Notes: generated by a model not told the origin, from the sequence alone. Shown: positions 591 through 31,012, counted from the first letter of the stretch. The stretch: DNA of 64,000 bases from an uncultured Planctomicrobium sp. (GCA_937916275.1 CALFTD010000318.1:27446-91445); one strand, 5' to 3'. Translations and numbers: made by a program.

Positions 591-2879
591 ATGTCGGAAA
601 GTAACGGTTCAACCACATTAAAGCACCATGATCGTAAGTATCAGGTGATTGGTACGAGACCCGTTCGACATGATGGTGCAGATAAGGTTACCGGTCGAGC
701 GATCTACGGAGCCGATGTTCGTCTGACAGGCATGTTGCAAGGATTTATTCTTCGTAGCCCGATTGCCCATGGAAATATTGTTTCTATCGACACATCTGAA
801 GCTGAAAAGTTTCCCGGTGTGTATGCTGTCATTACTGGTGCTGATTTGCCAGATGCCGAAGATCGCATCGCTGAGTTGGGTGAAGGATCTGTTAACCTGA
901 AGCACTTGAGTGCGAACATTCTCGCTAAAGACAAGGTGCTTTATCACGGTCATGCGATCGCTGCCGTGGCCGCTGAGAATATTCACATTGCTGAAGAGGC
1001 AGCCAAGCTCATCAAAGTAGAGATCGATCCGCTCTCAGTTGAGCTGGATGTCTTACAAGCAATGGAAGAGACAGCGTCTGTCTTGAACTCCGATGTGAAG
1101 ACAACTGAGTTCGGCGAAGTCATCGGTGATAAACCTTCGAATGTCGCGTCGAAATTCGTTTACGACAAAGGCGATGCCGCTTCGGCATTTGCTTCTGCTG
1201 ACGTTGTCGTTGAGAAAGAATTTCGGACAGCTACGGTTCATCAAGGATACATCGAACCACATACTTCAACGGCCCTGTGGCATGGTGATGGTCGCTGTAC
1301 TGTTTGGACGAGTACACAAGGTTCGTTTTCCGTTCGACATCAACTCGCAGAATTACTGGAGATTCCACTCACTTGGATTAAAGTCATCCCAACTGAGATC
1401 GGTGGCGGTTTTGGAGGGAAGATTTCGGTCTACGAACAACCGGTCGCTGTGTTGCTCTCCCAAAAATCTGGTCGACCTGTTCAAGTCACCATGAGTCGCA
1501 CCGATGTTTTTCAAGCAACGGGACCGACTCCCGGATCGTATATTCGCGTCAAGATTGGTGCCAATTCAGATGGAAAGATCGTCGCTGGAGAAGCCTATCT
1601 CGCTTACGAAGCTGGAGCGTATCCCGGTTCTCCGATTAACCCCGGTTGCCTTTGCATCTTCTCATGCTACGACATTCCCAATGCTCGCATTGAAGGCTAC
1701 GACGTCTGTGTGAACAAGCCACGCACGAATGCTTATCGTGCTCCAGGTTCAACAAATGCAGCGTTCGCCATTGAAGCGGTGATTGATGAAGTCGCTGAGA
1801 AGATTGGCGTCGACAAACTTCAGTTCCGCATCGATAACGCCTCGAAAGAAGGAACACGCCGACCCGATGGAGTTGTTTACCCCAAGATTGGACTTGTCGA
1901 GTGCTTAGAAGCAATCCAACAGAGTGATCATTACAAATCCAAGCTAGAAGGTCCGAATCGTGGACGTGGAGTCGCCTCCGGATTTTGGTTCAATGCAGGT
2001 TTGAAATCGAGTGTGACTGTCAACGTCAACAGCGATGGAATGGTGTCACTGATTGAAGGGTCAACAGATATCGGAGGCACGCGAACTTCCCTCTCAATGC
2101 AGCTCGCTGAAACCTTGGGGATCACCGCAGAGGACGTGCAACCGATTGTCGCCGACACCGATAGTGTCGGCTATACCGATGTCACCGGAGGAAGTCGTGT
2201 CACCATGGCGACTGGTATGGCTGTCCACGAAGCGGGTTTGAAAATCCGAGACCTAATGTGTGAGCGGGCAGCGAAGATCTGGGAGTGCGAGACCAGCGAA
2301 GTTCGCTACGAAGACCGTGGAGTGATTTCCGGTCCTAGCGGGAAGCAAGTCTCCTTCAAAGAGTTGGCGAACAAAATTATTTCAACTGGCGAATCGATAA
2401 CGGCTTCAGCGAGCATCAGTGCTCCAGCATCAAGCAACGCTTTCGGTGTGCATTGTGTAGATGTCGAAGTTGATCCTGAAACCGGTAAGGTCGAAATTTT
2501 AAGATATACCGCTGCTCAAGATGCGGGGACAGCGATTCACCCAGCCTATGTCGAAGGACAAATTCAGGGTGGAGTCGTCCAAGGGATTGGCTGGGGATTG
2601 AATGAGGAGTACATCTACAACAATGATGGATTATTGATGAATGCTAATTTCCTCGACTACCGCATGCCGACTTGTTTCGACCTCCCGAATATCGACGCCA
2701 TCATCGTGGAAGTCCCTAACCCAGATCATCCGTATGGAGTTCGCGGAGTGGGAGAAGTTCCTATCTGTCCCCCACCAGCTGCGTTGAATAGTTCCATTCA
2801 CGACGCGGTCGGAGTGAGAATGCAGGTGCTACCGATGTCACCACCGCGAGTGGTTCACGAACTTCTGAAAAAAGAATAA
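591..2879 (+). CDS. xanthine dehydrogenase / aldehyde oxidase family molybdopterin-binding large subunit (CoxL/XdhB-like)
   Basis: 762-aa ORF with AGGAG 7 nt upstream of the ATG. It has the EIGGGFGGK motif, and the hammerhead plus MoCo-binding layout is recognisable along the whole length. Confidence 0.9.
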   Translation: MSESNGSTTLKHHDRKYQVIGTRPVRHDGADKVTGRAIYGADVRLTGMLQGFILRSPIAHGNIVSIDTSEAEKFPGVYAVITGADLPDAEDRIAELGEGSVNLKHLSANILAKDKVLYHGHAIAAVAAENIHIAEEAAKLIKVEIDPLSVELDVLQAMEETASVLNSDVKTTEFGEVIGDKPSNVASKFVYDKGDAASAFASADVVVEKEFRTATVHQGYIEPHTSTALWHGDGRCTVWTSTQGSFSVRHQLAELLEIPLTWIKVIPTEIGGGFGGKISVYEQPVAVLLSQKSGRPVQVTMSRTDVFQATGPTPGSYIRVKIGANSDGKIVAGEAYLAYEAGAYPGSPINPGCLCIFSCYDIPNARIEGYDVCVNKPRTNAYRAPGSTNAAFAIEAVIDEVAEKIGVDKLQFRIDNASKEGTRRPDGVVYPKIGLVECLEAIQQSDHYKSKLEGPNRGRGVASGFWFNAGLKSSVTVNVNSDGMVSLIEGSTDIGGTRTSLSMQLAETLGITAEDVQPIVADTDSVGYTDVTGGSRVTMATGMAVHEAGLKIRDLMCERAAKIWECETSEVRYEDRGVISGPSGKQVSFKELANKIISTGESITASASISAPASSNAFGVHCVDVEVDPETGKVEILRYTAAQDAGTAIHPAYVEGQIQGGVVQGIGWGLNEEYIYNNDGLLMNANFLDYRMPTCFDLPNIDAIIVEVPNPDHPYGVRGVGEVPICPPPAALNSSIHDAVGVRMQVLPMSPPRVVHELLKKE

Positions 2880-2892
2880 CGCTAAAACTTGT

Positions 2893-4140
2893 TTATTTCT
2901 CGAGAGTGATCTCGTTTTTAGCCGTGTCGACATTCGTGACCTTACCGAATTCAATTCGGTCAGCGAATTGCTGAATGCCTTTGACATCATCAAAGACAAT
3001 CCGAGAAGAACCATCGCCAATATTTTCTGGTCGCATGCGAAATGTCTCCGCTGCTGTTCTTAGATCTCTCATGTGTCGAATAGTTTCACTTCTGTTAAAC
3101 CCTTTCAGGATGACGGTGACTGTTTGCTTTTCAGTTTCCACCACGGCGAATGGACTCTTCATTTCTGATGGTTCTGTGGTCGATCCGGTGGCAACGAAAG
3201 GATTCTCCATTTCCTCAGTTGTGCTTGTGTTGCCACTTTGCTGAGTGCTGGAAGGAAAGTTCGTGACATCCTTAAACGGGGAATCAGACTCTTCGGCTTG
3301 TGAAGTGTTTTGGTTTGTCGCATTTTGCTGCGTCGAATTTTCTTGCGAAGCTGGCTGATTAAAGAAATCACCCTGAGGAGCTGAACCAGGGTTCGACGCA
3401 TTCATCATGTCACGATGCGTTTGTTGCATTTGCTGTACAGAGTCATTGTGTCGTTGCATAGCGTCATCATGCATTTGCTCCGCAATGCGGTTCATCTCCG
3501 GCTGTTTCTTTTCGGCGCCTCCAATTGCATTCATTGCAATTCGACCAACGATAAATATCAGTGGAACTCCAAAGACTAAAGCGATAAGTCCAATAGCTCC
3601 CCATTTCACGAATTGAAATCCATTATCGAAGAGCTCCCCCATGTGGTCCTGTAAGTATGAAATAGTAATAAGGACCGCTCCTAGAATCAAAAAACAGACC
3701 CCTCCTAAGGTCTGCATCTCGGGCGACATGGCATTTAAGCCTTTGATTTGTAGTCCTATAAACGGCAGAATGAACGCTCCGACTCCGAACAGGATCATTG
3801 TTCCTCCGAACTTGCGCAATTGTTCGGGGGCAATCGTTGCAGTTTTCGATTTCCTAGATCGCCGTTTTCGCGAAGTTGATTGACGAGAAGAGCCAGCACT
3901 TTTCTTTCTAGCCGGAGTCTCTCCAAAGAGATCATCCTGTTCTTCTTCAAAACCGAACGGGTCTGCTGCGGGTTGACGTTGCTTTGATGTTGAGCGAGAA
4001 GGTTTTGGCTTCGCTGGTCGTACACGATGATCGGCAGCGGTGAAAAGTTCATCACATCTTGGGCAACGAACTTTTTCGATGGCTGACGTTAATTTCATTT
4101 TCGCCTGGCAACCTGGGCATTGAACACGCATTTCTGCCAT
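2893..4140 (-). CDS. hypothetical membrane protein: N-terminal CxxC..CxxC zinc ribbon, K/R/S-rich linker, 3-4 TM helices, Q/N/S/T-rich disordered region, small C-terminal domain
   Basis: 415-aa ORF with ATG at 4138-4140. Zinc-ribbon signature RVQCPGCQAKMKL..VRCPRCDELF. Hydrophobic segments MILFGVGAFILPFIG, GGVCFLILGAVLITISYL and WGAIGLIALVFGVPLIFIVG. It is the last gene of the FHA/Hsp70 block. Confidence 0.6.
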   Translation of the reverse strand: MAEMRVQCPGCQAKMKLTSAIEKVRCPRCDELFTAADHRVRPAKPKPSRSTSKQRQPAADPFGFEEEQDDLFGETPARKKSAGSSRQSTSRKRRSRKSKTATIAPEQLRKFGGTMILFGVGAFILPFIGLQIKGLNAMSPEMQTLGGVCFLILGAVLITISYLQDHMGELFDNGFQFVKWGAIGLIALVFGVPLIFIVGRIAMNAIGGAEKKQPEMNRIAEQMHDDAMQRHNDSVQQMQQTHRDMMNASNPGSAPQGDFFNQPASQENSTQQNATNQNTSQAEESDSPFKDVTNFPSSTQQSGNTSTTEEMENPFVATGSTTEPSEMKSPFAVVETEKQTVTVILKGFNRSETIRHMRDLRTAAETFRMRPENIGDGSSRIVFDDVKGIQQFADRIEFGKVTNVDTAKNEITLEK

Positions 4141-4380
4141 AGCAAAGCTCCTGGAAGTAGATAGTAAACAGAATTAATCATTAACGTACAATAGTACGCC
4201 AATGAGATGCAATCGTAATTTAAAGAACACTTCTGGTATGTCAGCACGACATCACAAGTCTTTAGGTTTAACGGCAAGCCATAGGCGTTGAAGTTTATCG
4301 TTTAACGCAGTCTCCTAGCAGTTAAACGAATTCTCACCAACAACTTGTGAACAGATGCTTAAGTAAATCACTTCTTGTTA

Positions 4381-4407
4381 TTTCACCCTTGCCCCTCGAT
4401 CCCTAGC
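4381..4407 (-). repeat. 27-nt conserved intergenic motif, copy 1 (plus strand tttcacccttgcccctcgatccctagc; minus strand GCTAGGGATCGAGGGGCAAGGGTGAAA)
   Basis: The identical 27-mer recurs at 33754-33780 in the same orientation. Both copies lie 5' of minus-strand genes. Confidence 0.85.
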
Positions 4408-4431
4408 TTCTTGCTCACGCGATTAGCCGCG

Positions 4432-6072
4432 TCAAGATTCTGCCGCTTCATCAAGCATGAATGGCCACTTCATATGGAAGCAAGTCCCGCGACCGAGTTC
4501 GCTGTCGATTGTGATTTCGCCGCCGTGTTCTTTTAATACTTTCTGGCTGACTGAGAGTCCCAGACCCGTTCCTGCGGAACCTTTGCTTGATTCAAAAAGG
4601 TTGAACATTTTGGGCAAGTCAACCGGATCAATACCGGTCCCATTATCCTCGATTTCGAGTTCAAATTTTTCTTCGTTTTGTAAGTATCGACCTCGAATGA
4701 TAATTTTAGGCTGCTCTTGATCCTCAAGCGCATCGATGGCATTGATGATCAGATTTAGAATCGCTCGATGAAAACCTTCGGAATCAATCATCGAGCCTGG
4801 TAAATTGTCAGTGAGCTCAATTTGTAATTCGATTCCATGATCAACAAGCCGCTGCTGCATCAGGTCGGCAACCTCTTGGATGATATCTTCAATTTCCGTT
4901 AAGACGAGCTTCGGCGCGCGGTCTTTACTGTATGCCAGCATGTCCATGACGAGGTTGTAGATTCTTTCCTGATTACGTTCGACGATGGTCCAACCTTTTT
5001 GGATGAGTTCGTTATTCTCTCCTTTCAAGCCCATATCGACCAGATAGCCACCACCCCGGACACCTTGCAGTATGTTCTTAATGTGATGGCTCATGATGGC
5101 AGTCGTTTGACCAACAGCAGCGAGGCGTTCAGCAGAAAGCATTGAATCGTGATAGCGATGGTTTTCAATTGCCAGAGCAGATTGTCGACCTATTGCGATC
5201 AATAGTCGTAAGAGTTGATCATTAAACTGCCCTGGTTGAGAGTCATCGACCTGCATGGCGGAGGTCGTCGTGTCGACATAGATCACTCCCATCAATTCGT
5301 ATCGTCCATGCATCGGAACACACATGACCTCACGAATCCCTGCTTTCAGAATGCTTTGCCCACCGTCAAAGCGGCTATCATGTTGAGCATCAGAGGTCCG
5401 TACGCCTTTGCCATTTTCAATAACATGCTCAACGATTGTTGTCGAAATCGGCATTCGTTGCCCTACGTCAATCCCTGCACGATGACTGACGACCCGAGGT
5501 TCGATGCGATCTGTCTTGCTGTCCGTTACTAACATACAACCGCGATCGGCGCCGACAGTTTTCAACGTCAGATCAAGGATTCGATTAAGCAATTCATCTC
5601 GTGAAGTGGTCGGACGCACCACTTCTTCGGTGATTTGATAAAGCAATTGTAGATTCGCACCTTCTTGCCCCCAGTTTTGTCCTTCTGAACGTACCTGACC
5701 GACAATACGTGAGCGGTCCGACTTTGCGTCTTCTGGGACAATATTGATCTGCACAGCGGCTTCCGAAGAATCGGAAGGGAGCGTTGAGGAAAATAGCAAA
5801 ATCGATCGACCAAGTTGAATCTGATCTCCTTGCTTTAAAGGAGATGATTCGACTTGCTTCCCATTGACAAAAGTTCCATTTGAACTGTTTTTGTCGACAA
5901 TTAACCAGCGATCATTCTCGAAGGTGAAGTCGGCATGTTGCCGGGACATCTCGGTATCTAAGATACGTGAGTCGTTATGGACACCTCGCCCGATACTGAG
6001 CTTATCGGTACTCAGCTCAATGCGACTCCCTTGCCCTGGTCCTTGAATGACCAGTAGTGTCGCTTCTGGCAC
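4432..6072 (-). CDS. FHA + GAF + HisKA/HATPase_c sensor histidine kinase
   Basis: 546-aa ORF with a GTG start and GAGG upstream. N-terminal FHA (LSIGRG..SRQHADF..IVDKNSSNGTFVNG), central GAF, H-box AIMSHHIKNIL, and ATPase G-boxes DNGTGI and GTGLGLS. Confidence 0.85.
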   Translation of the reverse strand: MPEATLLVIQGPGQGSRIELSTDKLSIGRGVHNDSRILDTEMSRQHADFTFENDRWLIVDKNSSNGTFVNGKQVESSPLKQGDQIQLGRSILLFSSTLPSDSSEAAVQINIVPEDAKSDRSRIVGQVRSEGQNWGQEGANLQLLYQITEEVVRPTTSRDELLNRILDLTLKTVGADRGCMLVTDSKTDRIEPRVVSHRAGIDVGQRMPISTTIVEHVIENGKGVRTSDAQHDSRFDGGQSILKAGIREVMCVPMHGRYELMGVIYVDTTTSAMQVDDSQPGQFNDQLLRLLIAIGRQSALAIENHRYHDSMLSAERLAAVGQTTAIMSHHIKNILQGVRGGGYLVDMGLKGENNELIQKGWTIVERNQERIYNLVMDMLAYSKDRAPKLVLTEIEDIIQEVADLMQQRLVDHGIELQIELTDNLPGSMIDSEGFHRAILNLIINAIDALEDQEQPKIIIRGRYLQNEEKFELEIEDNGTGIDPVDLPKMFNLFESSKGSAGTGLGLSVSQKVLKEHGGEITIDSELGRGTCFHMKWPFMLDEAAES

Positions 6073-6145
6073 AGTGCTACCTCGCAGTGAGAAATTTTTA
6101 TCTGCAAAAACACATTCTCTAAGGGGAAATGCGACTTGCCTGAAT

Positions 6146-7186
6146 TTACTTCCAGTATTTTTGAGTTACCCAGAAAGAGGTTCCAATCAAGCAGGCAATC
6201 GCTAATCCGAAGGAGATCAAGTTTGGATACCATGCCAACTTCAGAGCAAGCGAGGGGACCATCATTTTGAGAATCACAGGCAACATCGGGATGATGGCGC
6301 TCCAGCAAATAAACAGGATTCCATACTGCTTACGTTCTTTTTTCTCCTCTGGAGAAAGTTGATCGAAAGAACTGGAAGAAGCCGATGAAGATTTCGTTTT
6401 TCCCGATTTAGAACTTTTCTTTGACGGAACTGCATCCATGTTCGATGACGAGATTTTTGCCTCATCACGCATCCCAGGTGCATAATATTGCGCTATCGCC
6501 TGATTGACTGCCCTGGGTGACACAATGACTGGTCGAATCGGAACACCCGCTCTTAAGCGGAGTTCTTCTTCGGTTTCATGGTCGAGTTGATCAATGCAAG
6601 CAACAAGAAGTTGTCCATCATCGACAAACAAGGGGATGAAGGAATTGCGTTTGACCATGACACGCGGAACAAGATCCAGCGCATCGTCTTCCGGAAACAT
6701 GTCGTCCAGATCAACATAGGAATAGCCAAGTTGGACTGCCAGCGCTTGGGCAGCTTTGGTCGGATTGACAAGCTTCATCTGCACGACAGCATCGCGATGA
6801 CTTAAACCACGTTTGCTGGCAAACTCTTCTGCTTCACCTTGTTGGTCACGTGAAATGTCACCATTTCTCACGAGGACATCCAACAGCGGCTGGCGACCGA
6901 ACTCATCGACTTCTGCTTCGAATTCTCGCCCTAAACCCTCATCGTATTCACGCTTGCGAGTTGTGTCTGTGAGACACAACATCGCCTTCGCCATTTCATT
7001 GAGTAGATCTTGAGACTGAACCGAATATTGTCCGGTCGCGTACTTTCGAACATGACCATTCAACTTCTTATAGTGAGCGCGGATTTTCTCCGAATCATCT
7101 TCAAAGCGTACGATTCTGAGCAATTCATAATGATCCGGAGGACGCGGTCCCTCGGGGATTCCCAACCATTCCTTGTAGACATCCAT
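6146..7186 (-). CDS. membrane-anchored protein: HPD-less J-like module + T2SSE_N (GspE/MshE N-terminal type) domain + S/K-rich linker + C-terminal TM helices
   Basis: 346-aa ORF. WLGIPEGPRPPDHYELLRI..IRAHYKKLNGHVRKY..REYDEGL resembles a J domain but has no HPD. LLDVLVRNGDIS..LGYSYVDLDD..VKRNSFIPLFVDDGQLLVACID fits T2SSE_N. C-terminal hydrophobic segments are ILFICWSAIIPMLPVIL and ISFGLAIACLIGTSFWV. Confidence 0.6.
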   Translation of the reverse strand: MDVYKEWLGIPEGPRPPDHYELLRIVRFEDDSEKIRAHYKKLNGHVRKYATGQYSVQSQDLLNEMAKAMLCLTDTTRKREYDEGLGREFEAEVDEFGRQPLLDVLVRNGDISRDQQGEAEEFASKRGLSHRDAVVQMKLVNPTKAAQALAVQLGYSYVDLDDMFPEDDALDLVPRVMVKRNSFIPLFVDDGQLLVACIDQLDHETEEELRLRAGVPIRPVIVSPRAVNQAIAQYYAPGMRDEAKISSSNMDAVPSKKSSKSGKTKSSSASSSSFDQLSPEEKKERKQYGILFICWSAIIPMLPVILKMMVPSLALKLAWYPNLISFGLAIACLIGTSFWVTQKYWK

Positions 7187-7252
7187 AAATGAAAACTCTC
7201 AATCCGTACCCTGAAAATTCAACTCAAACTTCACTCACACAATTGGCGTCAA

Positions 7253-8830
7253 TTACTCAACTTGGTAATCGCTTGCCAGAGTCTGGAAAGCATCTACATT
7301 TTCATTTGTGAGACCTGAATCTCTGACAATTTCGGTTTTCGCGACGACATTTCCAGTCAACTCAATCGCTGTCGCGGAGAAACGACCGTTCTTATCGTAA
7401 CTGTAAGTGATTTCGACTGGCGATCCGGCAGGAAGGTCAGCAGGCAGGTTTACAATTCGGAAATCTCCAATCGTTGTACAGGCATCTGGATCAGATGCAT
7501 CACCTTCGAGTACACAAACGTGAACACGTTGCTGGTTCGCTGTGTTCGTTTTGAACTTTTGTTTGACTTCGACCGGTAACGATGAATTCTTAGGAATCAT
7601 GATGTGATTAATTTTCCGCGATTTCTCTTGCGGATCACTAATCTTCACTCCAAGAGAGTGAGAATTGACATCGGTTGCAGAAACCAGCCGCAAGCGGTTG
7701 ATCACAGCTTTCGCTAGACGGCTGTCACCACCTGTTGCTCTTGCTTCCAAAATCGCTGCATGAATAGCAGCTCCCTGAGAAACAGCTTCTTCTGGACTGA
7801 CATCACGGGACGGATCTAACCCTGTGACATCTTTCAACATTGTTTCAACGACCGGCATGTAAGTCGATCCACCGACCAGAACGAGCTCATCGAGTTCACC
7901 CTTTCCGACGCCCGCTTGCTGCATCACAAGTTCGGTTGTGTCGCGAGTTCGTTGCATGAGGTCGCCGGTCAGACGCTCGAAATCGCCGCGAGTCAATGCA
8001 ATCGTGACGTTTTTGCCCTTATAGTATGCACTAATCGGGATCTGTGCTCGTTCACTCAAGTCACGTTTTGCCTGCTCACATTCTTGAGTCAGTTGCATCA
8101 ATGTTTCAGGATCTTCACGTGGATCCAATTGATGTTTCGTATGGAATTCTTCAGCGATATGGTCGACGATTCGTCGACTCCAATCGAGTCCACCTAGCAT
8201 GACATCGCCATCTGTAGCGAGCACTTTGAATGTGGTCGCTGTATAGCGAACAACGGTGACATCGAAGGTTCCTCCTCCGAGATCGTAAACCATAATTGTT
8301 CGTTCACCATCAAAGGCATCAGGACGACCGAGATGACCTTTCTGCCAAGCGTAGGCAAGAGTTGCAGCTGTTGGCTCGTTGATGATATCGATCACGTTCA
8401 AGCCAGCGATTTTCCCGGAATCCTGCGTCGCTTTGCGACGTACATCGTTAAAGTAATACGGAACGGTAATGACCGCATTTGCGATGGGACCGATGCTCTT
8501 CTCTGCGTCTTGCTTGAGCTTTTTGATGATCAACGCCGAGACGAATTCTGGAGTCAGTTTCTTGTCTTGATAGACGACAAAGAAATCTTTGTTGCCCATT
8601 TGTCGTTTAATGGCTTCCACGATATTACGAGGATTTTCAATGGACATCCGTTCAAAGGTGGGACCAACGATGACCTTGCCTTCGTCGCTGAGAATGACAA
8701 CTGAAGGAGTGATTGTGGTCCCTTCAGCGTTTTCAACAGCGACAGGGTTGCCCTCTCCGTCGATTTGGGCAATAGCTGAATAGGTCGTGCCGAGATCGAC
8801 GCCGACTGTTTGACCTTCTTGGATTTCCAT
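7253..8830 (-). CDS. atypical Hsp70-family ATPase (NBD + beta-sandwich SBD, no helical lid; HscC-like)
   Basis: 525-aa ORF with Hsp70 signatures VGVDLGTTYS, VYDLGGGTFDV and LVLVGGSTYMPVV. The protein ends shortly after the beta substrate-binding subdomain. Confidence 0.9.
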   Translation of the reverse strand: MEIQEGQTVGVDLGTTYSAIAQIDGEGNPVAVENAEGTTITPSVVILSDEGKVIVGPTFERMSIENPRNIVEAIKRQMGNKDFFVVYQDKKLTPEFVSALIIKKLKQDAEKSIGPIANAVITVPYYFNDVRRKATQDSGKIAGLNVIDIINEPTAATLAYAWQKGHLGRPDAFDGERTIMVYDLGGGTFDVTVVRYTATTFKVLATDGDVMLGGLDWSRRIVDHIAEEFHTKHQLDPREDPETLMQLTQECEQAKRDLSERAQIPISAYYKGKNVTIALTRGDFERLTGDLMQRTRDTTELVMQQAGVGKGELDELVLVGGSTYMPVVETMLKDVTGLDPSRDVSPEEAVSQGAAIHAAILEARATGGDSRLAKAVINRLRLVSATDVNSHSLGVKISDPQEKSRKINHIMIPKNSSLPVEVKQKFKTNTANQQRVHVCVLEGDASDPDACTTIGDFRIVNLPADLPAGSPVEITYSYDKNGRFSATAIELTGNVVAKTEIVRDSGLTNENVDAFQTLASDYQVE

Positions 8831-9052
8831 TATGTTTCCTTTAACGATATATGATTCGCTGGTTTCAGCAATAAGTGATTTTATTAGCTTTGATTAAATC
8901 GACTGAGGATAAATAGTCTGTCTCTTGAACGAGACGAAGTGATTTGATGATCGCATATTCTGACGACGGGTTGCACCATATTCAAGCGAACGCTGATGAA
9001 TCCCTAGCGAATGAAAGAAATGAAGTCGATTTCTCCGACTGAGTACAGTGAA

Positions 9053-10729
9053 TTAAGTTGCTGATCTGCCGAACACCATCATCGTAATGTCGTCATTCTG
9101 TGGTCGACCGTCGGCGTGTTTGCGGACGTCTTCTCGTATTGTTTTTCCCATCACTTTCACATCTGGATCACAATTACAAATCAAATCTCTTAAGCGTTCC
9201 ATTCCATAGAGTTCGCTCTCAAAATTCATGGCCTCGCTGACACCATCTGTATAGAGAACGACAGTCTCCCCAGGAGCGATTCCGCGTTCACGTGTTTCAA
9301 AAGGAAACCCTTCCATGACTCCGATGGGAACTCCGACAGCATCGTCGTCGAATTCTTCCCAGGTTCCGTCAACCTTACGGATAATTGGAGACATGTGCCC
9401 AGAGTTCACGACGGACATGGAATGGTTAACTGTGTCGAGGATGGTGAGCACGAACGTCACAAACCGACCTTCAGTCGCTTTCGCACACATGTGATCGTTA
9501 ATTGCCATGACTGCTTCGCCCGCATCGGTGACGAATTCACTGACGCTGCGTACAACACTGGACATTCTTGACATTACTAATGAAGCAGGAACACCTTTCC
9601 CAGCGACGTCCCCAAACGCGAGCCAGATCTTGCCGTCTCGAGTTGGTATCACATCGTAGTAATCGCCACCAACGGCTTGGGCAGAATCATAAGATGTAAA
9701 AAATGAGTAATCAGGCAGATCGGGCAGAAACTCAGGCAGGAGAGCCTGTTGAACGCCACGAGCGATGTTCATCTCTCCTTCCTGCTTTTGTTTTTCCACA
9801 AAAGATTGCAATAGGCGAGCACTCTCGTAGGCCAGAGCTGCTTGTCCCGCGACAGTGACCATGATTTCGAGGTCTTCGTTCCGAAACTGCATCATCGGGT
9901 TTTGCGTGTCGATATTGATCACGCCGACCGGCTCACCCTGCAAGTCCAGCATCGGGACACACATCATCGACCGAATTGTCAGTGCAGAGATCGACTCGCT
10001 GGCATCGAAACGTGTGTCACTGGCAGCGTCTGCAGAAAGAATTGCTTTTTTCTGTTCCAGAACTGAACTCAAGATCGTTCGACTCAACTTGACTGTGGCG
10101 TCTTCATCTTCCCGGCGATGCTTCATTGCCCGGGGATTCATTTTTCCGGTCTTCGAATCCTTAAGAAGAATGCAACCACGGTCGGCAGCTGGGAAAATTG
10201 TAAATAATGAGTCGAGAATTTTTGGCAAAAGGGTTTCGACCTCTAATGTCCCCGCCAATGCGCGGCTAATGTCCAGGACAGCTTTTAATTTCTCTTGTGG
10301 ACGAGAATCAAGAATGCCGAGTGTTGAACTGTCCAGCGATCCAACAATCGTCGAAGAACCATCATCGGATTCGCTGACCTCCAGAGTTCCCATGTTTGCC
10401 GCGTTTTGCAGGGCATAAGATGCTGAACTGTCATCGTCATCTTGATCCGAATCGAAACGCATTAACATCGGACCAAATTTCACCCGATCATTTGTTTTGA
10501 GTTTTTGGCTCCCCTCAATTTTCTGACCATTCAGAAACGTACCGTTTCCACTTCCCATATCCTCGATAGAGAAATGAGAACCGTCTCTTACTACTTTAGC
10601 GTGCCTTCGAGAAACCATATTGGAAGGCAATTGAATATCGCATTCAGGCAATCGACCGATAACGGTTTCGTCTTGCGTCAATTCAAACGGAGTGGCTTGA
10701 CCATCCTGAAGAAGTACCATCTTGCTCAT
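9053..10729 (-). CDS. FHA + GAF + PP2C/SpoIIE-type serine phosphatase
   Basis: 558-aa ORF. FHA ([34 protein letters not shown]), a GAF core, and SpoIIE/PP2C motifs [29 protein letters not shown] and DDITMMVF. Confidence 0.85.
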
Positions 10730-10852
10730 GAAATTTCTCTCCGAAATGAATCGGTGAAGTTGCCCAAATTACAGTTTAAAGAATCATGACCTGACTGTTT
10801 AATCAGGTACAACAATTCTCATCTTACAATACTTACTGTTACAGTGAAGTTT

Positions 10853-12133
10853 TTAAACATTAAAAATTGTCTCAACATTCCCTCGCAGAATCTGTTTGCC
10901 GAAGTCCAACGCTTGTTCCTCAGTCCAACCTCGTCCAACAACAAAATCTGTAGCAAGAACTTTCGCCAACACTCTTCGATACATGCGGAACTTAGGAAGT
11001 GCGAATTCAAGTTTGTACATGTCGCTGTAGTAGCCGATCTGTTTCGTGCGGGGAACCGCTTCCAGTCGGCTACGTGTGTCAATCTCGATATAGGTTGGGA
11101 TATTGGAATACCACCAGTGACCGTTTGTGACAACATTCGGAAAGATCCACGAATAACTCACAAGCTCTTGATTACTGGTGCTGCCCAATACTGAAACGGG
11201 GAAGGTGACATCAGGGAAGGCATTAAATAGTTGTTTATACTGAAGTAATGAGACACGTTTGTCAAAAAGATCTTGCCCTTGATAGACACCATTTTCGTAA
11301 ACCTTGCGATTCACGCCGATCATCAGATCGAAGGGCAGCTTGTGCTCAGAGCAAAACTCAGCGATGGTCCAGAAGACAAACGACGACAGCATTTCCTGTT
11401 CGGTCGAAGTCAGTCGTTGACCTTTGACAGTTCTCTTAATCACCGCTGCCGCAGCGCCTGCATCAACTTTAGCAGGTGAGAAATTTGGAGGCAGAGAAAT
11501 GGCACATGCTTTCACATTGTTGCTGACGAAATGCGCGAATAACTTACCAATGGCTTCTCTGAAGGAGGCAGCGTCTCCGACTTCAATCCCGGATGCAGCA
11601 TTCAGTCTGTTGCGGACAGACTTTTTCAGGAAGTGAAAGACGAGGTCATCCGTTCTCAAGCAAGGGATGTAAAGATTCGTATCAAATCCTTCGAGCTTGT
11701 CGTCGAAATCATTCGTCAGAAAGACTTTCTCCAGCTTACTCTTTTCGAGAACCTGTTGTTCCCAATTCTCTTCGGACATTTTGGCGAGAGCAGTATCGTA
11801 CAGGTTCTCCCAGTTGTCTTTCGTTATCCGGTCATCCGTGAAGCCGAAAAATTCCCGGCACATGTCCAACAACCAATGGACTTGAATTGTATTATCCAGG
11901 TCGGTCAACTTTTCGACCAGACGCCCCACTTTTGTTTTTGGGTCGAGTCCTTCTTCTTCAATGAGCCCTTTGTCGAGTCCAGCAGAATGCGCCAACTCTG
12001 TGTAATAATGATATCCCATGATATCTGCCAATGTCTTAGAAGCGGCAGCGTGTGGGTCAATATGTGTGTGTGGATCGATCAGAAACAGTTGTTCTAATTC
12101 GTTGAAGAGAGTTGCTTCGAGGGATGTCGTCAT
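10853..12133 (-). CDS. glucuronate isomerase (UxaC)-like protein
   Basis: The ORF track gives a TTG-initiated 449 aa reaching 12202. I prefer the ATG at 12131-12133 (MTTSLEATLF..); the ATG at 12182-12184 is also possible. The IDPHTHIDPH start and the C-terminal GHWWYSN..GYYSDMYKLEF layout parallel UxaC. Confidence 0.55.
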   Translation of the reverse strand: MTTSLEATLFNELEQLFLIDPHTHIDPHAAASKTLADIMGYHYYTELAHSAGLDKGLIEEEGLDPKTKVGRLVEKLTDLDNTIQVHWLLDMCREFFGFTDDRITKDNWENLYDTALAKMSEENWEQQVLEKSKLEKVFLTNDFDDKLEGFDTNLYIPCLRTDDLVFHFLKKSVRNRLNAASGIEVGDAASFREAIGKLFAHFVSNNVKACAISLPPNFSPAKVDAGAAAAVIKRTVKGQRLTSTEQEMLSSFVFWTIAEFCSEHKLPFDLMIGVNRKVYENGVYQGQDLFDKRVSLLQYKQLFNAFPDVTFPVSVLGSTSNQELVSYSWIFPNVVTNGHWWYSNIPTYIEIDTRSRLEAVPRTKQIGYYSDMYKLEFALPKFRMYRRVLAKVLATDFVVGRGWTEEQALDFGKQILRGNVETIFNV

Positions 12134-12198
12134 AGTTTTGGAGACTTCTTTGCAATAAACAATGTATTGCAACAGTTTCGTCATTGACGATGTGGACT

Positions 12199-12690
12199 TC
12201 AACCGTCAGACGACTTCGATTCTTCCGAACTGCAAACCTTATTACGAATCTCCGCCTCACGATCCAATGGACATTTCAGAGAGATTCGCCTAGATGTTTC
12301 GCCAATCGTCTCGATTTCAATACGAATGAGTCTTTTGGGCAACACGTCAGCGACACGATCTGCCCACTCAATCAAACAAATATTATCAGCTCCCAAAAGT
12401 TCATCCGCTCCCAGTTCAAGAAATTCATCCGTGTCGTTTAAGCGATACGCATCGATGTGACAGACAGGTACGTCTCCATCATATTCTTGTATCAAAACAA
12501 ACGTCGGGCTGTTGACCTCTTCCGGGTCGACTCCCAATTGTTTTGCAATTGCCTGGGTCAGATGAGTTTTCCCAGCACCCAGGTCACCAATCAAAGCAAT
12601 CACATCTCCGATCCGCAGAACCTCAGCCAGCTGCACACCAAACAGTTGCGTTTCTTGAAGAGAGTGGACATCAATTGAGAATGTGTGCAT
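12199..12690 (-). CDS. tsaE: tRNA t6A37 threonylcarbamoyl-transfer complex ATPase TsaE
   Basis: 163-aa ORF with P-loop IGDLGAGKTHLTQAIA and the SPTFVLIQEY and HIDAYRL motifs typical of TsaE/YjeE. Confidence 0.85.
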   Translation of the reverse strand: MHTFSIDVHSLQETQLFGVQLAEVLRIGDVIALIGDLGAGKTHLTQAIAKQLGVDPEEVNSPTFVLIQEYDGDVPVCHIDAYRLNDTDEFLELGADELLGADNICLIEWADRVADVLPKRLIRIEIETIGETSRRISLKCPLDREAEIRNKVCSSEESKSSDG

Positions 12691-26017: not shown

Positions 26018-28519
26018 CTAATGATTAAAGATAAACTCGCGACTCGTCATCAACGACCAGAAAAGATCTTCAATCACAACTTGTAGTTCATCAGCAGCGG
26101 TTTCGTTAAGAATGACTGCGTACTGAGATCGCTCATCTTTAGTCGGATACCGACTTAAGCACCATAGGAAGGATTCATCTATCAAGGAGTCGAGAGACAT
26201 CCCGTTCACGATTTGAGCATGAAGTGAGCTAACACGACCGGCGGCGTCCTCCATTTTTTCATTGATGGTGGACCCGTTAGAGAGATGAAGAACCTGAACC
26301 ATGCTCGGCTCGTTTGAGCGTTCACATTCGCAAACGATATTACGGGTATTTCGTCCAAACGCTTTCAGGAAGTATGATTCCACCGCTGAGTCATAGAGTT
26401 GAATCGCTCGGGTTCCGACAGGGTAGAAATCTGTTTTCTGGAAATCGGCTCCCGGGAACTCGACTCGCTCGAACTTCGTTGGAACTCCCGTCGCTTGGAC
26501 AAGGGAGTCATGAATCACCTCAGCGATGAGTCGTCTTGGGAAGTATCTCGAATAGAATCGAGTATCGGCTTCGTTACCTGCAACAGGGAGGCTTGATCGC
26601 TGATATGCATTTGATTGAAGAATTGTTTTCATCAGAGGTTTAAGATCGAATTTATTTTCGATCACAAAATCAGCAGCGGCTTCCAGAAGCTCTTCGTTGC
26701 TTGCAGGATTCGAGACACGCATATCGTCAATCGATTCTACTAATCCGACGCCATAGAAATTTGCCCAAATTCGATTGGTGATCGACTTTGCAAAGTAAGG
26801 GTTCTCTGGTGATGTCATCCACTCAGCAAGATATCCTCGACGGTCTTCAGTGCTCTCAAACGGAATGGGTTCACCGTCCAATGGAGTCGGCGGTTGCGGT
26901 TTCCCAGTCCGTGGCTGATAGAGTTCTCCTTCATCTGAAACGAAGACTGTTCGTAATCCATCCCCGTTTCGGCGGTCTCCACCCCAACCTTTCGCACGAA
27001 CTCGAGAGAAGATATTTGCCATCCCGTAGTATTGATCGTTGGTCCATTTCTCAAGCGGATGATTGTGACATTTCGCACAACCAATACTTAATCCCATAAA
27101 TGCCTGGCAAGCATTTTCTGTCATGTCTTCTGGGGTTTCGTAAAGAGAATAGAAGTTCGCAGCGCCGTTTTCATAAGTGCTGCCCGTCGCTGTTAAAATC
27201 TCCTGTACAAACTGATCCCAGGGAGTGTTTTTCTCGACTCGCTCGTGAACCCAGTTGTAATAGGCTTTTAAGGCGACAGGTCTGAGCAGAGTTCCATTCA
27301 GCATTAGCAAGTCGGACCATTTATATGTCCAATAATCGACGAATTCTGGTCGATCCAGTAAATGATCAATCAGCAAATCACGTTTATTCTCTGTCGAATC
27401 AGCGAGGAAATCTTTGACTTCCTGGGGAGTTGGAGGCAACCCAATTGTGTCGAGATAAGCTCGGCGTATGAACGTGGCATCATCACACATGGGAGATGGA
27501 GGCAGGTTGATGTTCTGTAGCTGTTTGTTGATGATTTCATCTAGGAAGTTCGCAGGCTTGAGTGACGCATAGACTTCTGGAGGAACCTCATTTACGTACG
27601 GGACAGTGATGCGAGTGACTGAAATCTTGGAAGAAAACCAGCCGACGATAGCACCTTCACCGGGACCGACAATATCTACTTTTCCTGTTGAATCTACCGT
27701 GCAAACGGCTTCATTCGTTGATGTCCAGCGAACCCATTCGGTGACGTCACTTTTTGAGTCGTCACTGTAGTGAGCGTACCCCAAGAGTTGCTGTGTCTGA
27801 CCTTTTACGAGCTGAACACGCTTGGGCAAAACTGCAATCGAATCAATCTTTACATCTTCCTCGGTGGGCGGAGTCGCTCCGTTTGCGATCCACTCAGAAA
27901 GAATCCGATAATCACGCGAGTCGTTATCGAGTTTGAGGCCTCCTTTGTGTGGAATCGCCCCCGATGGTTTCGCCAAAAACAGACTTCTGCCGGGGTCAGC
28001 GAATTCAATTCTCCGTCCCAGATCCTGTTTCGTAATATTGAAGTAATCGGACTGCGGATCGTACATCCCCAATGAGAGTCGAAAGCCTCCCTTACCAGCG
28101 AGTGCTCCGTGACACGCACCGACGTTACACCCAGCTTTTGTGATCGCCGGTTCGACATGGTTGCGAAAACTCCATTGAAATGGCTCTTGCATTGAAGAGA
28201 CGTTCACTTTGGCAGAGACCGTATTGCCATCGACGTTAGCGATGATATTCGCCTCACCGTTTCCATGAGGAGTTACAACGCCTTGGCTATTCACCGTCGC
28301 AATGTTTTCGTCGCTGCTCGTCCATATGATCGATGTATGGTCGACTTGCCCTTGAACCGTATCACCTTGCTTTTTCTGCACAATGAGATGAGCTGTGCTT
28401 TCCGCCCCTCGCAGGGAGACTGCATCCGGTATCAGAATCAATTCTTCGGCAGACGAGAGCCTTCCGAACAACAAACAAGTGAGGAAGAGTGCCTGGAGTG
28501 TTCGTTGAAGTGTTATCAT
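26018..28519 (-). CDS. secreted DUF1549/DUF1553 (PSD1-type) protein with Big_2-like N-terminal domain
   Basis: About 833 aa from ATG 28517-28519 (MITLQRTLQALFLTCLLFG signal). It has the GCAKCHNHPLEKW (CxxCH) motif of DUF1549 and a DUF1553-like C-terminus. This is a typical planctomycete family. Confidence 0.8.
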   Translation of the reverse strand: MITLQRTLQALFLTCLLFGRLSSAEELILIPDAVSLRGAESTAHLIVQKKQGDTVQGQVDHTSIIWTSSDENIATVNSQGVVTPHGNGEANIIANVDGNTVSAKVNVSSMQEPFQWSFRNHVEPAITKAGCNVGACHGALAGKGGFRLSLGMYDPQSDYFNITKQDLGRRIEFADPGRSLFLAKPSGAIPHKGGLKLDNDSRDYRILSEWIANGATPPTEEDVKIDSIAVLPKRVQLVKGQTQQLLGYAHYSDDSKSDVTEWVRWTSTNEAVCTVDSTGKVDIVGPGEGAIVGWFSSKISVTRITVPYVNEVPPEVYASLKPANFLDEIINKQLQNINLPPSPMCDDATFIRRAYLDTIGLPPTPQEVKDFLADSTENKRDLLIDHLLDRPEFVDYWTYKWSDLLMLNGTLLRPVALKAYYNWVHERVEKNTPWDQFVQEILTATGSTYENGAANFYSLYETPEDMTENACQAFMGLSIGCAKCHNHPLEKWTNDQYYGMANIFSRVRAKGWGGDRRNGDGLRTVFVSDEGELYQPRTGKPQPPTPLDGEPIPFESTEDRRGYLAEWMTSPENPYFAKSITNRIWANFYGVGLVESIDDMRVSNPASNEELLEAAADFVIENKFDLKPLMKTILQSNAYQRSSLPVAGNEADTRFYSRYFPRRLIAEVIHDSLVQATGVPTKFERVEFPGADFQKTDFYPVGTRAIQLYDSAVESYFLKAFGRNTRNIVCECERSNEPSMVQVLHLSNGSTINEKMEDAAGRVSSLHAQIVNGMSLDSLIDESFLWCLSRYPTKDERSQYAVILNETAADELQVVIEDLFWSLMTSREFIFNH

Positions 28520-28900
28520 AAATATCAATGAACTCTAATGATGGGGAAATGGTCAGTAGAATATGACACAACAGACCAGTTGCTAAATGCGTTCGTATCG
28601 AACACATCTATTCTCGCATATCATAGTCATTTCAACAGTCGCAGTGCAGTCAACAATTTACGGAGTCCGGAAAATTCCCCGCCATGTTAAGATTTTAAGG
28701 AAAGTGACAGATTCAGGCTCGCGAGTTTGTGAAGGTGTGATAATCTCCTGATAGACAACATGAGCCTGAACTTTTCAATACTATTGAGTGAAATCACTAG
28801 AGCAAATTCAATATTCATTAAACTGTTCTGTCTCGTGGCACCAGCGTGTCAATTTTTGGAAACGTAACCCGTGGACAAGAGAAGTATTGGAAATGCTCTC

Positions 28901-31012
28901 ATGAGCCAGACAAATTATTTCGATCGGGAACTGAGTTGGTTAGAATTTAATCAACGGGTTTTGAATGAGGCTCATAATAAGAGTGTTCCTCTGCTGGAAA
29001 GGTTAAAATTCCTCGCTATTACGAGTTCGAATCTGGATGAGTTTTTCCGGGTGCGCGTCGGAGCATTGACGCGACTTATTGAATCAGACGCAGCGAAGAA
29101 AGCACCTTCAGGTCTGACGCCTACCGAGCAGTTGGCGGCTGTTCAAGCTCGAATCAAAAAGATGGTCGAAGAGCAATACGACTGCCTCTTGAACGAGATC
29201 GCTCCGATATTGCTTGAACATGAGATTCGTCAGCTGACTGAGGATGAACTGAATTCGACTCAAAAAATGATGTTGAAGCAGGTCTTCGAAACGGAGATCC
29301 TGTCAGTCTTAACGCCGATGTCAGTCGGAGAAGGAGTTCAGTTTCCATTGTTGGCGAATCAGATCCTTAATCTTTGTATTCGCCTCGCTCCGCGACCATT
29401 TGAATCCAATTCGGAAAACACGACAGATCGATTCGCTGTGATTCCTTTTGGGAGAACACTCTCACGTTTTTATTCCTTACCTTCCGAGTCTGGATTTGCC
29501 TACATGCCTTTGGAGGACATTGTTTGCATGTTCATCCATGAATTTTTTCCAGGTGAAGAGGTTCTTGAGTTTTGCCCGTTTCGATTGACTCGCAATGCGG
29601 AAGTTGAAGTGCAGGAGTTCACTCCGCAAGGGTTGGCAGTGAATATGGCAGAAGTCATTCTCGCGCGAACCGAAGCCGACTGTTTGCGTCTGGAAGTGCA
29701 TGAGAGCGTCTCAAATGAACTCGTCGAATTTATGAAATCCGAAGTTCAGGTCACTGATGAGCAGATTCATCGAGTTCCGGGACCAGTCGATTTGGGAGCC
29801 TTTATGGAACTCGCAGGTCGTAGGGGATTCGAAAATTTGAAGTATGAACCTTGGCCGCCTGTGAGATCGCCTGAAGTTCCGGCGGAAGAATTGTTATTCG
29901 ATTCAATTGCGGAAAAAGACATCCTGCTGTTTCACCCATATGAAAGCTTTGAACCAGTCGTTCGGTTTGTAGAAGAAGCTGCGGAAGATCCTGATGTGAT
30001 TGCAATCAAACAGACGTTGTACCGCATCAGCAGGGACAGTCGCATTGTTCGTGCTTTAAAGCGAGCAGTCGATAACGGCAAACATGTGACCGTTTTATTA
30101 GAACTTAAAGCCCGCTTCGATGAAGAACGCAACCTGAAGCAAGCGCGCGAACTCGAAGCGATCGGAGCTCAAGTAATTCATGGAGTGAAAGGACTTAAAA
30201 CGCACGCCAAGGTTTGTATTGTCGTCAGGCGTGAACCGGGCGGAGTGCAGCGATACGTCCATTTTGGAACGGGTAACTACAACGAATCAACAGCGAAGCT
30301 TTACAGCGACGCCTCATTACTCTCATGCAATGAAGAACTCGGTGCCGATGCGATTGCCTTCTTCAATTCCATCGCTGGCGATTCACAACCACCGCAAAAC
30401 TATCGCAAACTCGAATCAGCACCATTGCGATTAAGATCGGAATTGATTGAGCTGATTCAAGCTGAAGTGAAACGAGCTAAAGCTGGCAATGAAGCCAAAA
30501 TTATGGTCAAGGTCAATGCTCTGACAGACACAGCTTTAATTGATACTCTTTATTCGGCTTCGCAAGCGGGTGTCAAAATATTTTTGAACATTCGTGGCAT
30601 CTGCTGTTTGAAACCTGGGGTTCCGGGGCTGAGTGAAAACATTCGAGTAACAAGCATCGTCGACCGTTTTCTCGAACATGCTCGTGTGATTTACTTACAC
30701 CATGGTGGCGATCCTCAAGTTTACATTTCGAGCGCCGATTGGATGCCGCGAAATTTAGATCAGCGAAAAGAACTATTGGTTCCGATTACAGATTCGAAAT
30801 GTCGCAGACAGTTGATACACATTCTCGATTCATTCCGTAAAGATAATACGAATGCATCCCATCTTCACCCTGATGGCACTTACTCCAAGAAAGTACTTGG
30901 AGTGGATGAGGAACCGTTTCGTGCGCAAGAAACACTTTACGAAGAAGCACGGATTGCTACAAATCGGATTGCGAAGAAACAGCGCACGATGTTTGAACCG
31001 CATCATTTTTAA
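28901..31012 (+). CDS. ppk1: polyphosphate kinase 1
   Basis: MSQTNYFDRELSWLEFNQRVLNEA matches the canonical PPK1 N-terminus. The PLD-like HAK motif (LKTHAKVCIV) is present. The ORF-track GTG at 28871 is probably upstream of the true start. Confidence 0.95.
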   Translation: MSQTNYFDRELSWLEFNQRVLNEAHNKSVPLLERLKFLAITSSNLDEFFRVRVGALTRLIESDAAKKAPSGLTPTEQLAAVQARIKKMVEEQYDCLLNEIAPILLEHEIRQLTEDELNSTQKMMLKQVFETEILSVLTPMSVGEGVQFPLLANQILNLCIRLAPRPFESNSENTTDRFAVIPFGRTLSRFYSLPSESGFAYMPLEDIVCMFIHEFFPGEEVLEFCPFRLTRNAEVEVQEFTPQGLAVNMAEVILARTEADCLRLEVHESVSNELVEFMKSEVQVTDEQIHRVPGPVDLGAFMELAGRRGFENLKYEPWPPVRSPEVPAEELLFDSIAEKDILLFHPYESFEPVVRFVEEAAEDPDVIAIKQTLYRISRDSRIVRALKRAVDNGKHVTVLLELKARFDEERNLKQARELEAIGAQVIHGVKGLKTHAKVCIVVRREPGGVQRYVHFGTGNYNESTAKLYSDASLLSCNEELGADAIAFFNSIAGDSQPPQNYRKLESAPLRLRSELIELIQAEVKRAKAGNEAKIMVKVNALTDTALIDTLYSASQAGVKIFLNIRGICCLKPGVPGLSENIRVTSIVDRFLEHARVIYLHHGGDPQVYISSADWMPRNLDQRKELLVPITDSKCRRQLIHILDSFRKDNTNASHLHPDGTYSKKVLGVDEEPFRAQETLYEEARIATNRIAKKQRTMFEPHHF

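Follow-up and report, generated by a model that had tools for sequence, protein, structure and literature searches.

A conserved Hsp70/J-like protein pair of Planctomycetes with an apparently rewritten interface

Five co-directional genes in a planctomycete genome

The DNA analysed here, referred to as the window, is a stretch of 64,000 nucleotides (nt) from an uncultured Planctomicrobium sp. (GCA_937916275.1 CALFTD010000318.1:27446-91445). In our analysis, its source was placed as a Thalassoglobus-like member of the Planctomycetaceae. A preliminary description, made from the sequence alone, had singled out five minus-strand genes and proposed that they form one system in which a kinase and a phosphatase act as a toggle on an Hsp70 machine. 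Analysis of open reading frames (ORFs) and Pfam matches found all five ORFs, with the described domains, exactly where they had been placed. In the order of transcription, they encode a phosphatase with FHA, GAF and PP2C (SpoIIE) domains (9053-10729; Pfam FHA, 7e-21; GAF, 2e-13; SpoIIE, 4e-42 and 144.8 bits); a lid-less, specialised Hsp70 of 525 residues with an intact ATPase domain and a β-sandwich substrate domain (7253-8830; Pfam HSP70, 1e-119); a membrane-anchored J-like/MshEN protein of 346 residues (6146-7186; Pfam MshEN, 2.5e-19, and a sub-threshold match to DnaJ); an FHA-GAF-histidine kinase (4432-6072; Pfam FHA, GAF, a weak HisKA and HATPase_c, 2e-24); and a Zn-ribbon membrane protein (2893-4140). 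In the same order, the intergenic spacers measured 222 nt (8831-9052), 66 nt (7187-7252), 73 nt (6073-6145) and 291 nt (4141-4431), reproducing the range of 66 to 291 nt first described. According to the analysis reported below, the Hsp70 and the J-like protein constitute a specialised Hsp70/J-protein pair whose interface appears to have been rewritten. The interest of the region rests on this pair and on the family of its J-like domain, not on the five-gene cluster.

Conservation of gene order

We used the J-like/MshEN protein as the anchor for synteny analysis because it was the most specific marker. It had 1747 homologues, with relatives in 419 species-level genomes. We gathered 80 genome and 80 metagenome loci, the latter retrieved via a 9-sequence alignment of more distant members, so that a deeper branch was sampled (J-like proteins ∼45% and Hsp70s ∼53% identical). 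The presence of each gene was determined by tblastn with all window proteins against every locus, and only loci with enough flanking DNA were counted.

The Hsp70 gene lay directly upstream of the J-like/MshEN gene, on the same strand, in 102 of 118 loci (60/69 genome and 42/49 metagenome). The spacing of the pair was ∼1.6-1.8 kb and the strand was always the same down to ∼45% identity of the J-like protein and ∼53% identity of the Hsp70, and the pair is thus conserved over deep divergence. By contrast, the FHA-GAF kinase was found at the pair in 3/55 genome and 0/36 metagenome loci (3/91 in total), the FHA-GAF phosphatase in 1/58 and 0/37 (1/95 in total), and the Zn-ribbon gene in 0/38 and 0/27 of the loci with enough downstream DNA (0/65 in total). 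In an all-against-all clustering of 1569 flanking ORFs, no other gene was conserved beside the pair: the most frequent genuine family after these two was present in 13 loci, and an apparent family of 42 loci turned out to be a shadow ORF on the antisense strand of the Hsp70 gene.

Only the Hsp70/J-like arrangement, which recurs in 102 of the 118 related loci, exceeds chance. These data support the earlier pairing of the Hsp70 with the J-like membrane protein. They do not support the toggle: of the five genes, only the pair recurs within ∼10 kb in related genomes, and the orthologues of its neighbours are scattered, an outcome that the preliminary description had itself named as counting against its proposal. 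The five-gene arrangement is a juxtaposition of separate blocks that is mostly lineage-specific. One block is AspK-rSAM-TsaE-UxaC-phosphatase and the other is the Hsp70-J-like pair; the two are joined only in Thalassoglobus.

The loci in which no Hsp70 gene precedes the J-like gene, some of them named Fuerstiella, are L046, L047, L056, L058, L064, L072, L075, L076, L081, L087-L089, L114, L123, L154 and L161. At the metagenome locus L087 (6956-9028), the J-like gene lies within a 690-residue ORF, which may mean that the protein is extended or fused at its N-terminus, or may be an artefact of calling ORFs in DNA rich in G+C. In the window, the Hsp70 and J-like ORFs share a reading frame, and the gap between them (7187-7252) contains three in-frame stops, that of the Hsp70 included. 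The in-frame arrangement occurs in about one third of the related loci, which is the proportion expected by chance.

The lid-less Hsp70

We aligned 88 orthologues of the Hsp70 to E. coli DnaK; the window protein was also aligned to the DnaK of Mycobacterium tuberculosis. The E. coli numbering reproduces R167, Q378, L391, P419 and D477 of a published review (PMC8215388). The catalytic residues D8, K70, E171, D194, T199 and D201 (DnaK numbering) are invariant in the 88 orthologues, as are N170, T173, R151, P419 and F426. The β-sandwich substrate domain aligns through DnaK residue ∼507, with the arch residues M404 and A429 replaced by polar ones. The protein terminates at approximately DnaK residue 530, ∼20 residues past the β domain, and the median length of the orthologues is 525 residues. 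The α-helical lid (helices A-E) and the C-terminal tail are therefore missing, as the preliminary description had recognized in calling the protein lidless. Overall, the sequence is that expected of an active ATPase with a substrate-binding β domain and no lid.

In DnaK, R167 and Q378 hydrogen-bond to Asp35 of the His-Pro-Asp (HPD) motif of DnaJ, and D477 forms a salt bridge with the J domain (PMC8215388). The position of R167 is Asp in 86 of the 88 orthologues (Asp148 in the window, minus-strand codon 8387-8389), and that of Q378 is His in all 88. The acidic DnaK loop 206-218 is replaced by a shortened, de-acidified loop, RYTATTFKV (8222-8248, minus strand), that carries a 4-residue deletion. 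Across the family, the changes in this loop are E206 to R, D208 to T, E209 to P, D211 to H, N or Q, and E217 to R, Q or K. D477 and D481 are likewise lost, being replaced by S, A or N (S or A at position 477). Finally, the interdomain linker, LVSATDV in the window protein, is without the hydrophobic LLL of the DnaK sequence VLLLD. These substitutions indicate that the J-domain docking surface of the Hsp70 has been rebuilt across the whole family.

The J-like/MshEN membrane protein

An AlphaFold2 model of the J-like protein, calculated from a 31-sequence alignment, had a mean predicted local distance difference test (pLDDT) score of 86.7, with values >90 over residues 20-80. From the N-terminus, the model comprises an extra helix (YKEWLGI), a four-helix J fold (residues 19-84), an MshEN fold (residues 101-235), a disordered Ser/Lys-rich linker and two long hydrophobic helices. 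The J-fold domain as a whole occupies residues 1-87 (6926-7186, minus strand), with helices at residues 19-22, 32-47, 55-73 and 75-84 following the YKEWLGI helix. In Foldseek comparisons, it matched solved J domains with TM-scores of 0.74-0.84 (for 6rzy, 1.6 Å over 69 columns); its score against Pfam DnaJ was 16.5 bits versus a cut-off of 27.8. The HPD tripeptide occurred in none of the 118 orthologues, in keeping with the earlier characterization of the protein as HPD-less. The place that HPD takes in J domains, at the end of helix II, is occupied by the basic loop His45-Val46-Arg47-Lys48-Tyr49 (HVRKY; 7040-7054, minus strand). The family version of this loop, N-x-H-V-R-K-Y-A-T-G, is near-invariant: V46 and R47 are each present in 117 of the 118 orthologues, K48 in 108 and G52 in all.

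The MshEN-fold domain (residues 98-240; 6467-6895, minus strand) superimposed in Foldseek on MshE-N, the GSPII domain of PilF and PilB-N with TM-scores of 0.75-0.84 (0.82-0.84 for 5htl). The motif by which MshEN domains bind cyclic di-GMP (c-di-GMP) consists of two copies of RLGxxLVxxGILxxxxLxxxLxxQ, 5 residues apart (PMC10519070). In the two corresponding segments of the 118 orthologues, position 1 is Arg in 1/118 and 0/118, position 3 is Gly in 4/118 and 0/118, and position 24 is Gln in 0/118 and 15/118. The domain has near-invariant residues of its own, R131, D132, A133, Q136 and K138. On the grounds of the missing motif, we reject a role of this domain as a c-di-GMP receptor.

The C-terminal membrane anchor consists of two hydrophobic helices (residues ∼287-311 and 317-341; 6155-6352, minus strand) identified in the AlphaFold2 model and by a hydropathy scan, in agreement with the membrane attachment first proposed. 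NCBI calls some orthologues (P0011, P0114) 'bacteriophage N4 adsorption protein B'. The only resemblance detected, a weak and partial one, is to the MshEN region in the model of NfrB (39 bits versus a cut-off of 1170), and the name is most likely misleading, reflecting only the common MshEN domain.

A wider family of HPD-less J-like domains

A search of 1.84 billion representative proteins revealed that the J-like domain also occurs in many longer proteins. Of the 150 best representatives, 107 were recognized by a profile of the domain, with 143 copies in all and at least two copies in each of 31 proteins; tandem arrangements are frequent in the family. The HPD motif was present in none of the 143 copies, and the third loop position was R or K in 122 of them. 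Examples of fusion partners are WD40 propellers, a protein kinase, Laminin_G_3, PA14/β-helix, and MshEN combined with WD40. The consensus of the planctomycete family (P0146, P0156, P0185-P0268), for the domain encoded by 6926-7186 in the window, reads FDPYxxWLGI...HYxLLG..FE.D...HVR.Y..G...LLNEL..A..CL...K..YD.

Large surveys of J-domain proteins dropped sequences without HPD (PMC10410713), and would therefore have missed this J-like family and its multidomain planctomycete relatives. It is conceivable, though we advance it tentatively, that Planctomycetes run a second, insulated Hsp70 network. Such a network would consist of Asp167-type, lid-less Hsp70s driven by the HPD-less 'WLGI...HVR' family of J-like domains, with the membrane MshEN protein as the founding partner and with the polarity of the contact inverted (a basic loop on the J-like domain and Asp on the Hsp70). 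If it exists, this second network would represent a natural orthogonal chaperone/co-chaperone code.

Comparison with known systems

The closest known analogue of the pair is E. coli HscC (Hsc62) with DjlC/DjlB. There too, a specialised Hsp70 is encoded beside a dedicated J protein, which is anchored in the membrane by its C-terminus and deviates from the canonical motif (HPE in DjlC), and HscC was stimulated only by DjlC in tests against DnaJ, CbpA and HscB (PMC8215388). The listed features of HscC-type proteins include a deletion in the D211-containing loop and an insertion of 4-8 residues in loop L1,2 (PMC8215388). Compared with HscC of strain MG1655, the window Hsp70 has the same 4-residue deletion in the DnaK 206-217 loop, together with 6 extra residues in the L1,2 loop of its β domain. 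HscC, however, is 556 residues long and retains Arg167, a linker of hydrophobic character and a lid, albeit a shortened one, whereas the window protein has Asp148, a His at the position of Gln378 and no lid, and its 525 residues put it outside the length of 550-580 residues with a shortened lid that characterizes the HscC type. The changed R167, the missing lid, the length and the closer relationship to DnaK (39% identity, versus 30% to HscC) exclude it from the HscC group. As HscC keeps R167 and a lid, and as the window protein is closer to DnaK, we consider the latter a distinct type. DjlC, for its part, differs from the J-like protein in that it keeps H-P and has no MshEN domain.

With DnaK-DnaJ (PDB 5NRO), the pair shares the ATPase catalytic residues, P419, N170, T173 and R151, and a partner with a four-helix J fold. 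It differs in the absence of HPD, the R167-to-D and Q378-to-H substitutions, the loss of the acidic loop, D477 and D481, the LVSATDV linker and the missing lid. No GrpE gene was found near the pair among the window ORFs or in the clustering of neighbours. Mitochondrial Pam16/Tim16 likewise has a J fold without HPD and cooperates at a membrane with a dedicated Hsp70; that Hsp70 is an ordinary one, on which Pam16 acts via Pam18, a J partner of the canonical type. The planctomycete pair differs in that the Hsp70's own surface has changed and no HPD-containing partner is encoded nearby. Finally, the J-like protein has the same fold as, and a Pfam MshEN match in common with, MshE of Vibrio cholerae, PilF of Thermus thermophilus and NfrB; unlike in these MshEN receptors, the domain lacks both 24-residue motifs and is joined to neither a secretion ATPase nor a glycosyltransferase. 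The literature searched contained no description of the Hsp70/J-like pair or of the five-gene set.

The flanking kinase, phosphatase and Zn-ribbon genes

The FHA-GAF modules of the kinase and phosphatase are paralogous (33% identity over 323 residues, E 2e-36), as had been proposed. According to the translations, the phosphothreonine-binding residues (GR...SR.H...NGT) are kept in both FHA domains. Both enzymes also keep their catalytic motifs and look catalytically intact; in the kinase, the His box (SHHIKN) and the N, G1 and G2 boxes (NLIINAID, DNGTG and GTGLGL) can be read directly. Consistent with the earlier statement, no response regulator, STAS, anti-sigma or Ser/Thr kinase gene adjoins the cluster or occurs among the ORFs scanned to ∼35 kb, the scan beyond 16 kb being limited to ORFs of at least 200 residues. 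Nor was a receiver-domain gene found near the kinase in that scan or at loci L002, L166 and L167, and no STAS-domain or anti-sigma partner was found near the phosphatase in this region of the window or at loci L164 and L165.

Each of the two enzymes represents a well-conserved orthologous group across Planctomycetaceae, with its own genomic context. The kinase gene follows the pair in T. neptunius, at loci L006 and L008 and in Planctomicrobium SH661, that is, in the Thalassoglobus/Planctomicrobium sub-clade only. In that sub-clade, the next gene downstream of the kinase, an unrelated 3keto-disac_hyd gene, is conserved too, and inherited gene order therefore explains the adjacency of the kinase as well as function does. 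In Maioricimonas rarisocia, the kinase orthologue adjoins a gene for a 1367-residue Ser/Thr kinase, and the Hsp70 and J-like genes are absent within 8 kb; the two kinase genes lie tail to tail (locus L167, 8001-13900). This Ser/Thr kinase plausibly generates the phosphothreonine that the FHA domain recognizes. Conversely, the locus of the pair in Maioricimonas sp. JC845 (L012) is without the FHA-GAF kinase. The kinase gene is probably co-transcribed with the pair in the window and in close relatives, across the 73-nt spacer. We favour the view that it is a passenger particular to some lineages, or an optional regulator, outside the conserved core.

The phosphatase gene adjoins the pair only in Thalassoglobus. 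Its orthologues in Planctomicrobium SH661 and Caulifigura are 62-72% identical and lie 2.4-2.5 Mb from the pair. In Planctomicrobium SH661, the orthologue (72% identical) follows TsaE-UxaC, as in the window, and is 2.4 Mb from the Hsp70-J-like-kinase block; in Caulifigura coniformis, it is beside PgpA, 2.5 Mb from the pair. The order TsaE-UxaC-like-FHA-GAF-PP2C is common to the window (10853-12690 with 9053-10729), T. neptunius and Planctomicrobium SH661 (locus L165, 5648-9683). Since this order is conserved, the stable neighbours of the phosphatase are a tRNA-modification gene and a glucuronate-isomerase-like amidohydrolase gene, not the chaperone pair, and the phosphatase belongs to the upstream TsaE-UxaC block.

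The kinase and phosphatase may well respond to the same signal and, through their FHA domains, to Ser/Thr kinases such as the one encoded beside the kinase in Maioricimonas; their only specific tie to the chaperone pair is the local order of genes in a small number of lineages. The kinase resembles EspA and EspC of Myxococcus xanthus, in which an FHA domain is likewise fused to a histidine kinase, and gives partial NCBIfam matches to both. It differs from them in having GAF rather than PAS, in lacking a receiver domain and in scoring far under the equivalog cut-offs.

The Zn-ribbon protein has three hydrophobic segments and an MJ0042-type zinc ribbon that falls under the Pfam cut-off and over the NCBIfam cut-off. 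The 291-nt spacer upstream of its gene contains a terminator-like hairpin of 12 pairs (4178-4205, minus strand) and a promoter-like site, both found by consensus scan only. Unique to the window among the loci compared, this gene is an unrelated neighbour that probably forms its own transcription unit.

Proposed function of the pair and alternative explanations

We consider it reasonably likely that the functional unit is a module of two genes rather than five, in which a specialised, lid-less Hsp70 works with a dedicated, membrane-anchored J-like co-chaperone through a rewritten contact. The two C-terminal helices would anchor the J-like protein in the cytoplasmic membrane, with the J-fold and MshEN domains facing the cytoplasm. 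The J-like domain is predicted to dock physically on the Hsp70, holding it at the membrane and controlling its ATPase. In this interaction, the HPD-Arg167 contact would be replaced on both sides, by the basic HVRKY loop in the J-like domain and by the Asp at the position of Arg167 and the His at the position of Gln378 in the Hsp70, and the loss of the Hsp70's acidic loop, which docks helix II, would be part of the same rewriting. With the contact changed on both partners, the pair should be insulated from the housekeeping DnaK/DnaJ. The MshEN domain, with its own conserved surface, may act as a protein-binding adaptor that recruits a client or regulator, rather than binding c-di-GMP, and the absence of the lid predicts fast exchange of clients. 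If this holds, a J protein/Hsp70 contact that is supposedly universal would have been naturally rewritten on both partners. The pair would then provide a handle on how Hsp70 networks stay insulated and a template for engineering orthogonal pairs. The region further illustrates that a neat array of signalling and chaperone genes, all pointing the same way, can be mostly a lineage-specific juxtaposition of separate blocks.

Several observations weigh against this proposal. The Hsp70 gene is not adjacent upstream of the J-like gene in 16 of the 118 loci. A sequence register in which Y39KKL corresponds to Y25KRL of DnaJ puts R47-K48-Y49 on H33-P34-D35; the residue standing for D35 is accordingly uncertain, and a 'charge swap' is something that we infer. 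Moreover, the J-like domain retains a basic helix II (R36, K40, K41), and the Hsp70 loop that this helix would face is now basic or neutral. This points to a changed docking geometry, which may differ from that of 5NRO, rather than to a simple swap. The polar interdomain linker means that canonical allostery may not apply. In addition, two genera and many metagenome contigs have retained the kinase gene next to the pair, and a functional link between them is thus possible.

The proposal that all five genes form one system, with the FHA-gated histidine kinase and the PP2C phosphatase opposing each other on the Hsp70/J-like machine or on each other, agrees with their shared direction and short spacers, with the paralogous FHA-GAF modules, intact phosphothreonine-binding residues and apparently intact active sites of the two enzymes, with the lack of other substrate genes among the scanned ORFs and with the position of the kinase in one sub-clade. 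Synteny has largely refuted it: adjacency to the pair was found at 1/58 genome and 0/37 metagenome loci for the phosphatase, whose orthologues lie megabases away with TsaE-UxaC or PgpA, at 3/55 and 0/36 for the kinase, which is elsewhere in Maioricimonas, and at none of 65 loci for the Zn-ribbon gene. Furthermore, a histidine kinase and a Ser/Thr phosphatase act on different phospho-residues, and the 222-nt spacer before the Hsp70 gene, with its weak terminator-like site, leaves room for a separate promoter. We regard a five-gene system as very improbable. A narrower version, in which the kinase joined the pair to form an Hsp70-J-like-kinase operon, as client or regulator, in the Thalassoglobus/Planctomicrobium clade only, fits the 73-nt spacer without a terminator-like site, the same gene order in T. 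neptunius, L006, L008 and Planctomicrobium SH661, and ∼25 J-like and kinase homologues for which, read by eye, the listed length of the longest contig is the same, in many cases 15 kb or less. General synteny explains the adjacency, since the unrelated 3keto-disac_hyd gene is conserved in the same clade, and the kinase is missing at all more distant loci although orthologues exist there; such recruitment is unlikely.

Two further explanations concern the pair itself. HPD has been required for ATPase stimulation in every system tested (PMC8215388). Its absence from all 118 orthologues, together with the polar linker of the Hsp70, would suit a non-stimulating pseudo-J domain, comparable to Pam16/Tim16, that holds the Hsp70 in place or restrains it, or fails to bind it at all, with the ATPase driven by a canonical, HPD-containing J protein from another locus. 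Yet the HPD-reading residues (R167, Q378) and the acidic docking loop are missing from the Hsp70 itself, and a canonical J protein should therefore act poorly on it; the near-invariance of the replacement loop, in turn, argues for a selected function. We assign a pseudo-J domain a rather low probability. A lower one still attaches to the idea that the pair, via the MshEN domain, assists a type IV pilus or a machine resembling type II secretion, or acts as a c-di-GMP effector. The MshEN fold does match the N-domains of PilB, PilF, MshE and XpsE, with weak matches to the EpsE-N1/GspE-N domain complexed with the cytoplasmic domain of GspL (2bh1, 4pht). However, the c-di-GMP motif is absent family-wide, pilus and secretion genes do not recur beside the pair, and the J-like protein is without a PilB/GspE-type ATPase domain.

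Other features of the region

In consensus scans, the 222-nt spacer upstream of the Hsp70 gene contained the weak terminator-like site mentioned above, and the 73-nt spacer between the J-like and kinase genes contained none; the number of promoter and terminator sites in the region was not above that in shuffled sequences. A search for a CIRCE element, as a sign of heat-shock control, found none, and no Rfam family was found in 2500-11500. A conflict or defence system was considered and rejected: PADLOC gave zero matches for all five proteins, and the Hsp70-containing conflict systems described by the Aravind laboratory are GTPase/tubulin/Hsp70 sets unrelated to these genes. Further upstream, the window encodes a PSCyt2/PSD1 (DUF1549/DUF1553) protein (26018-28528) and a polyphosphate kinase (28871-31012), which are ordinary gene content and unlinked to the pair.

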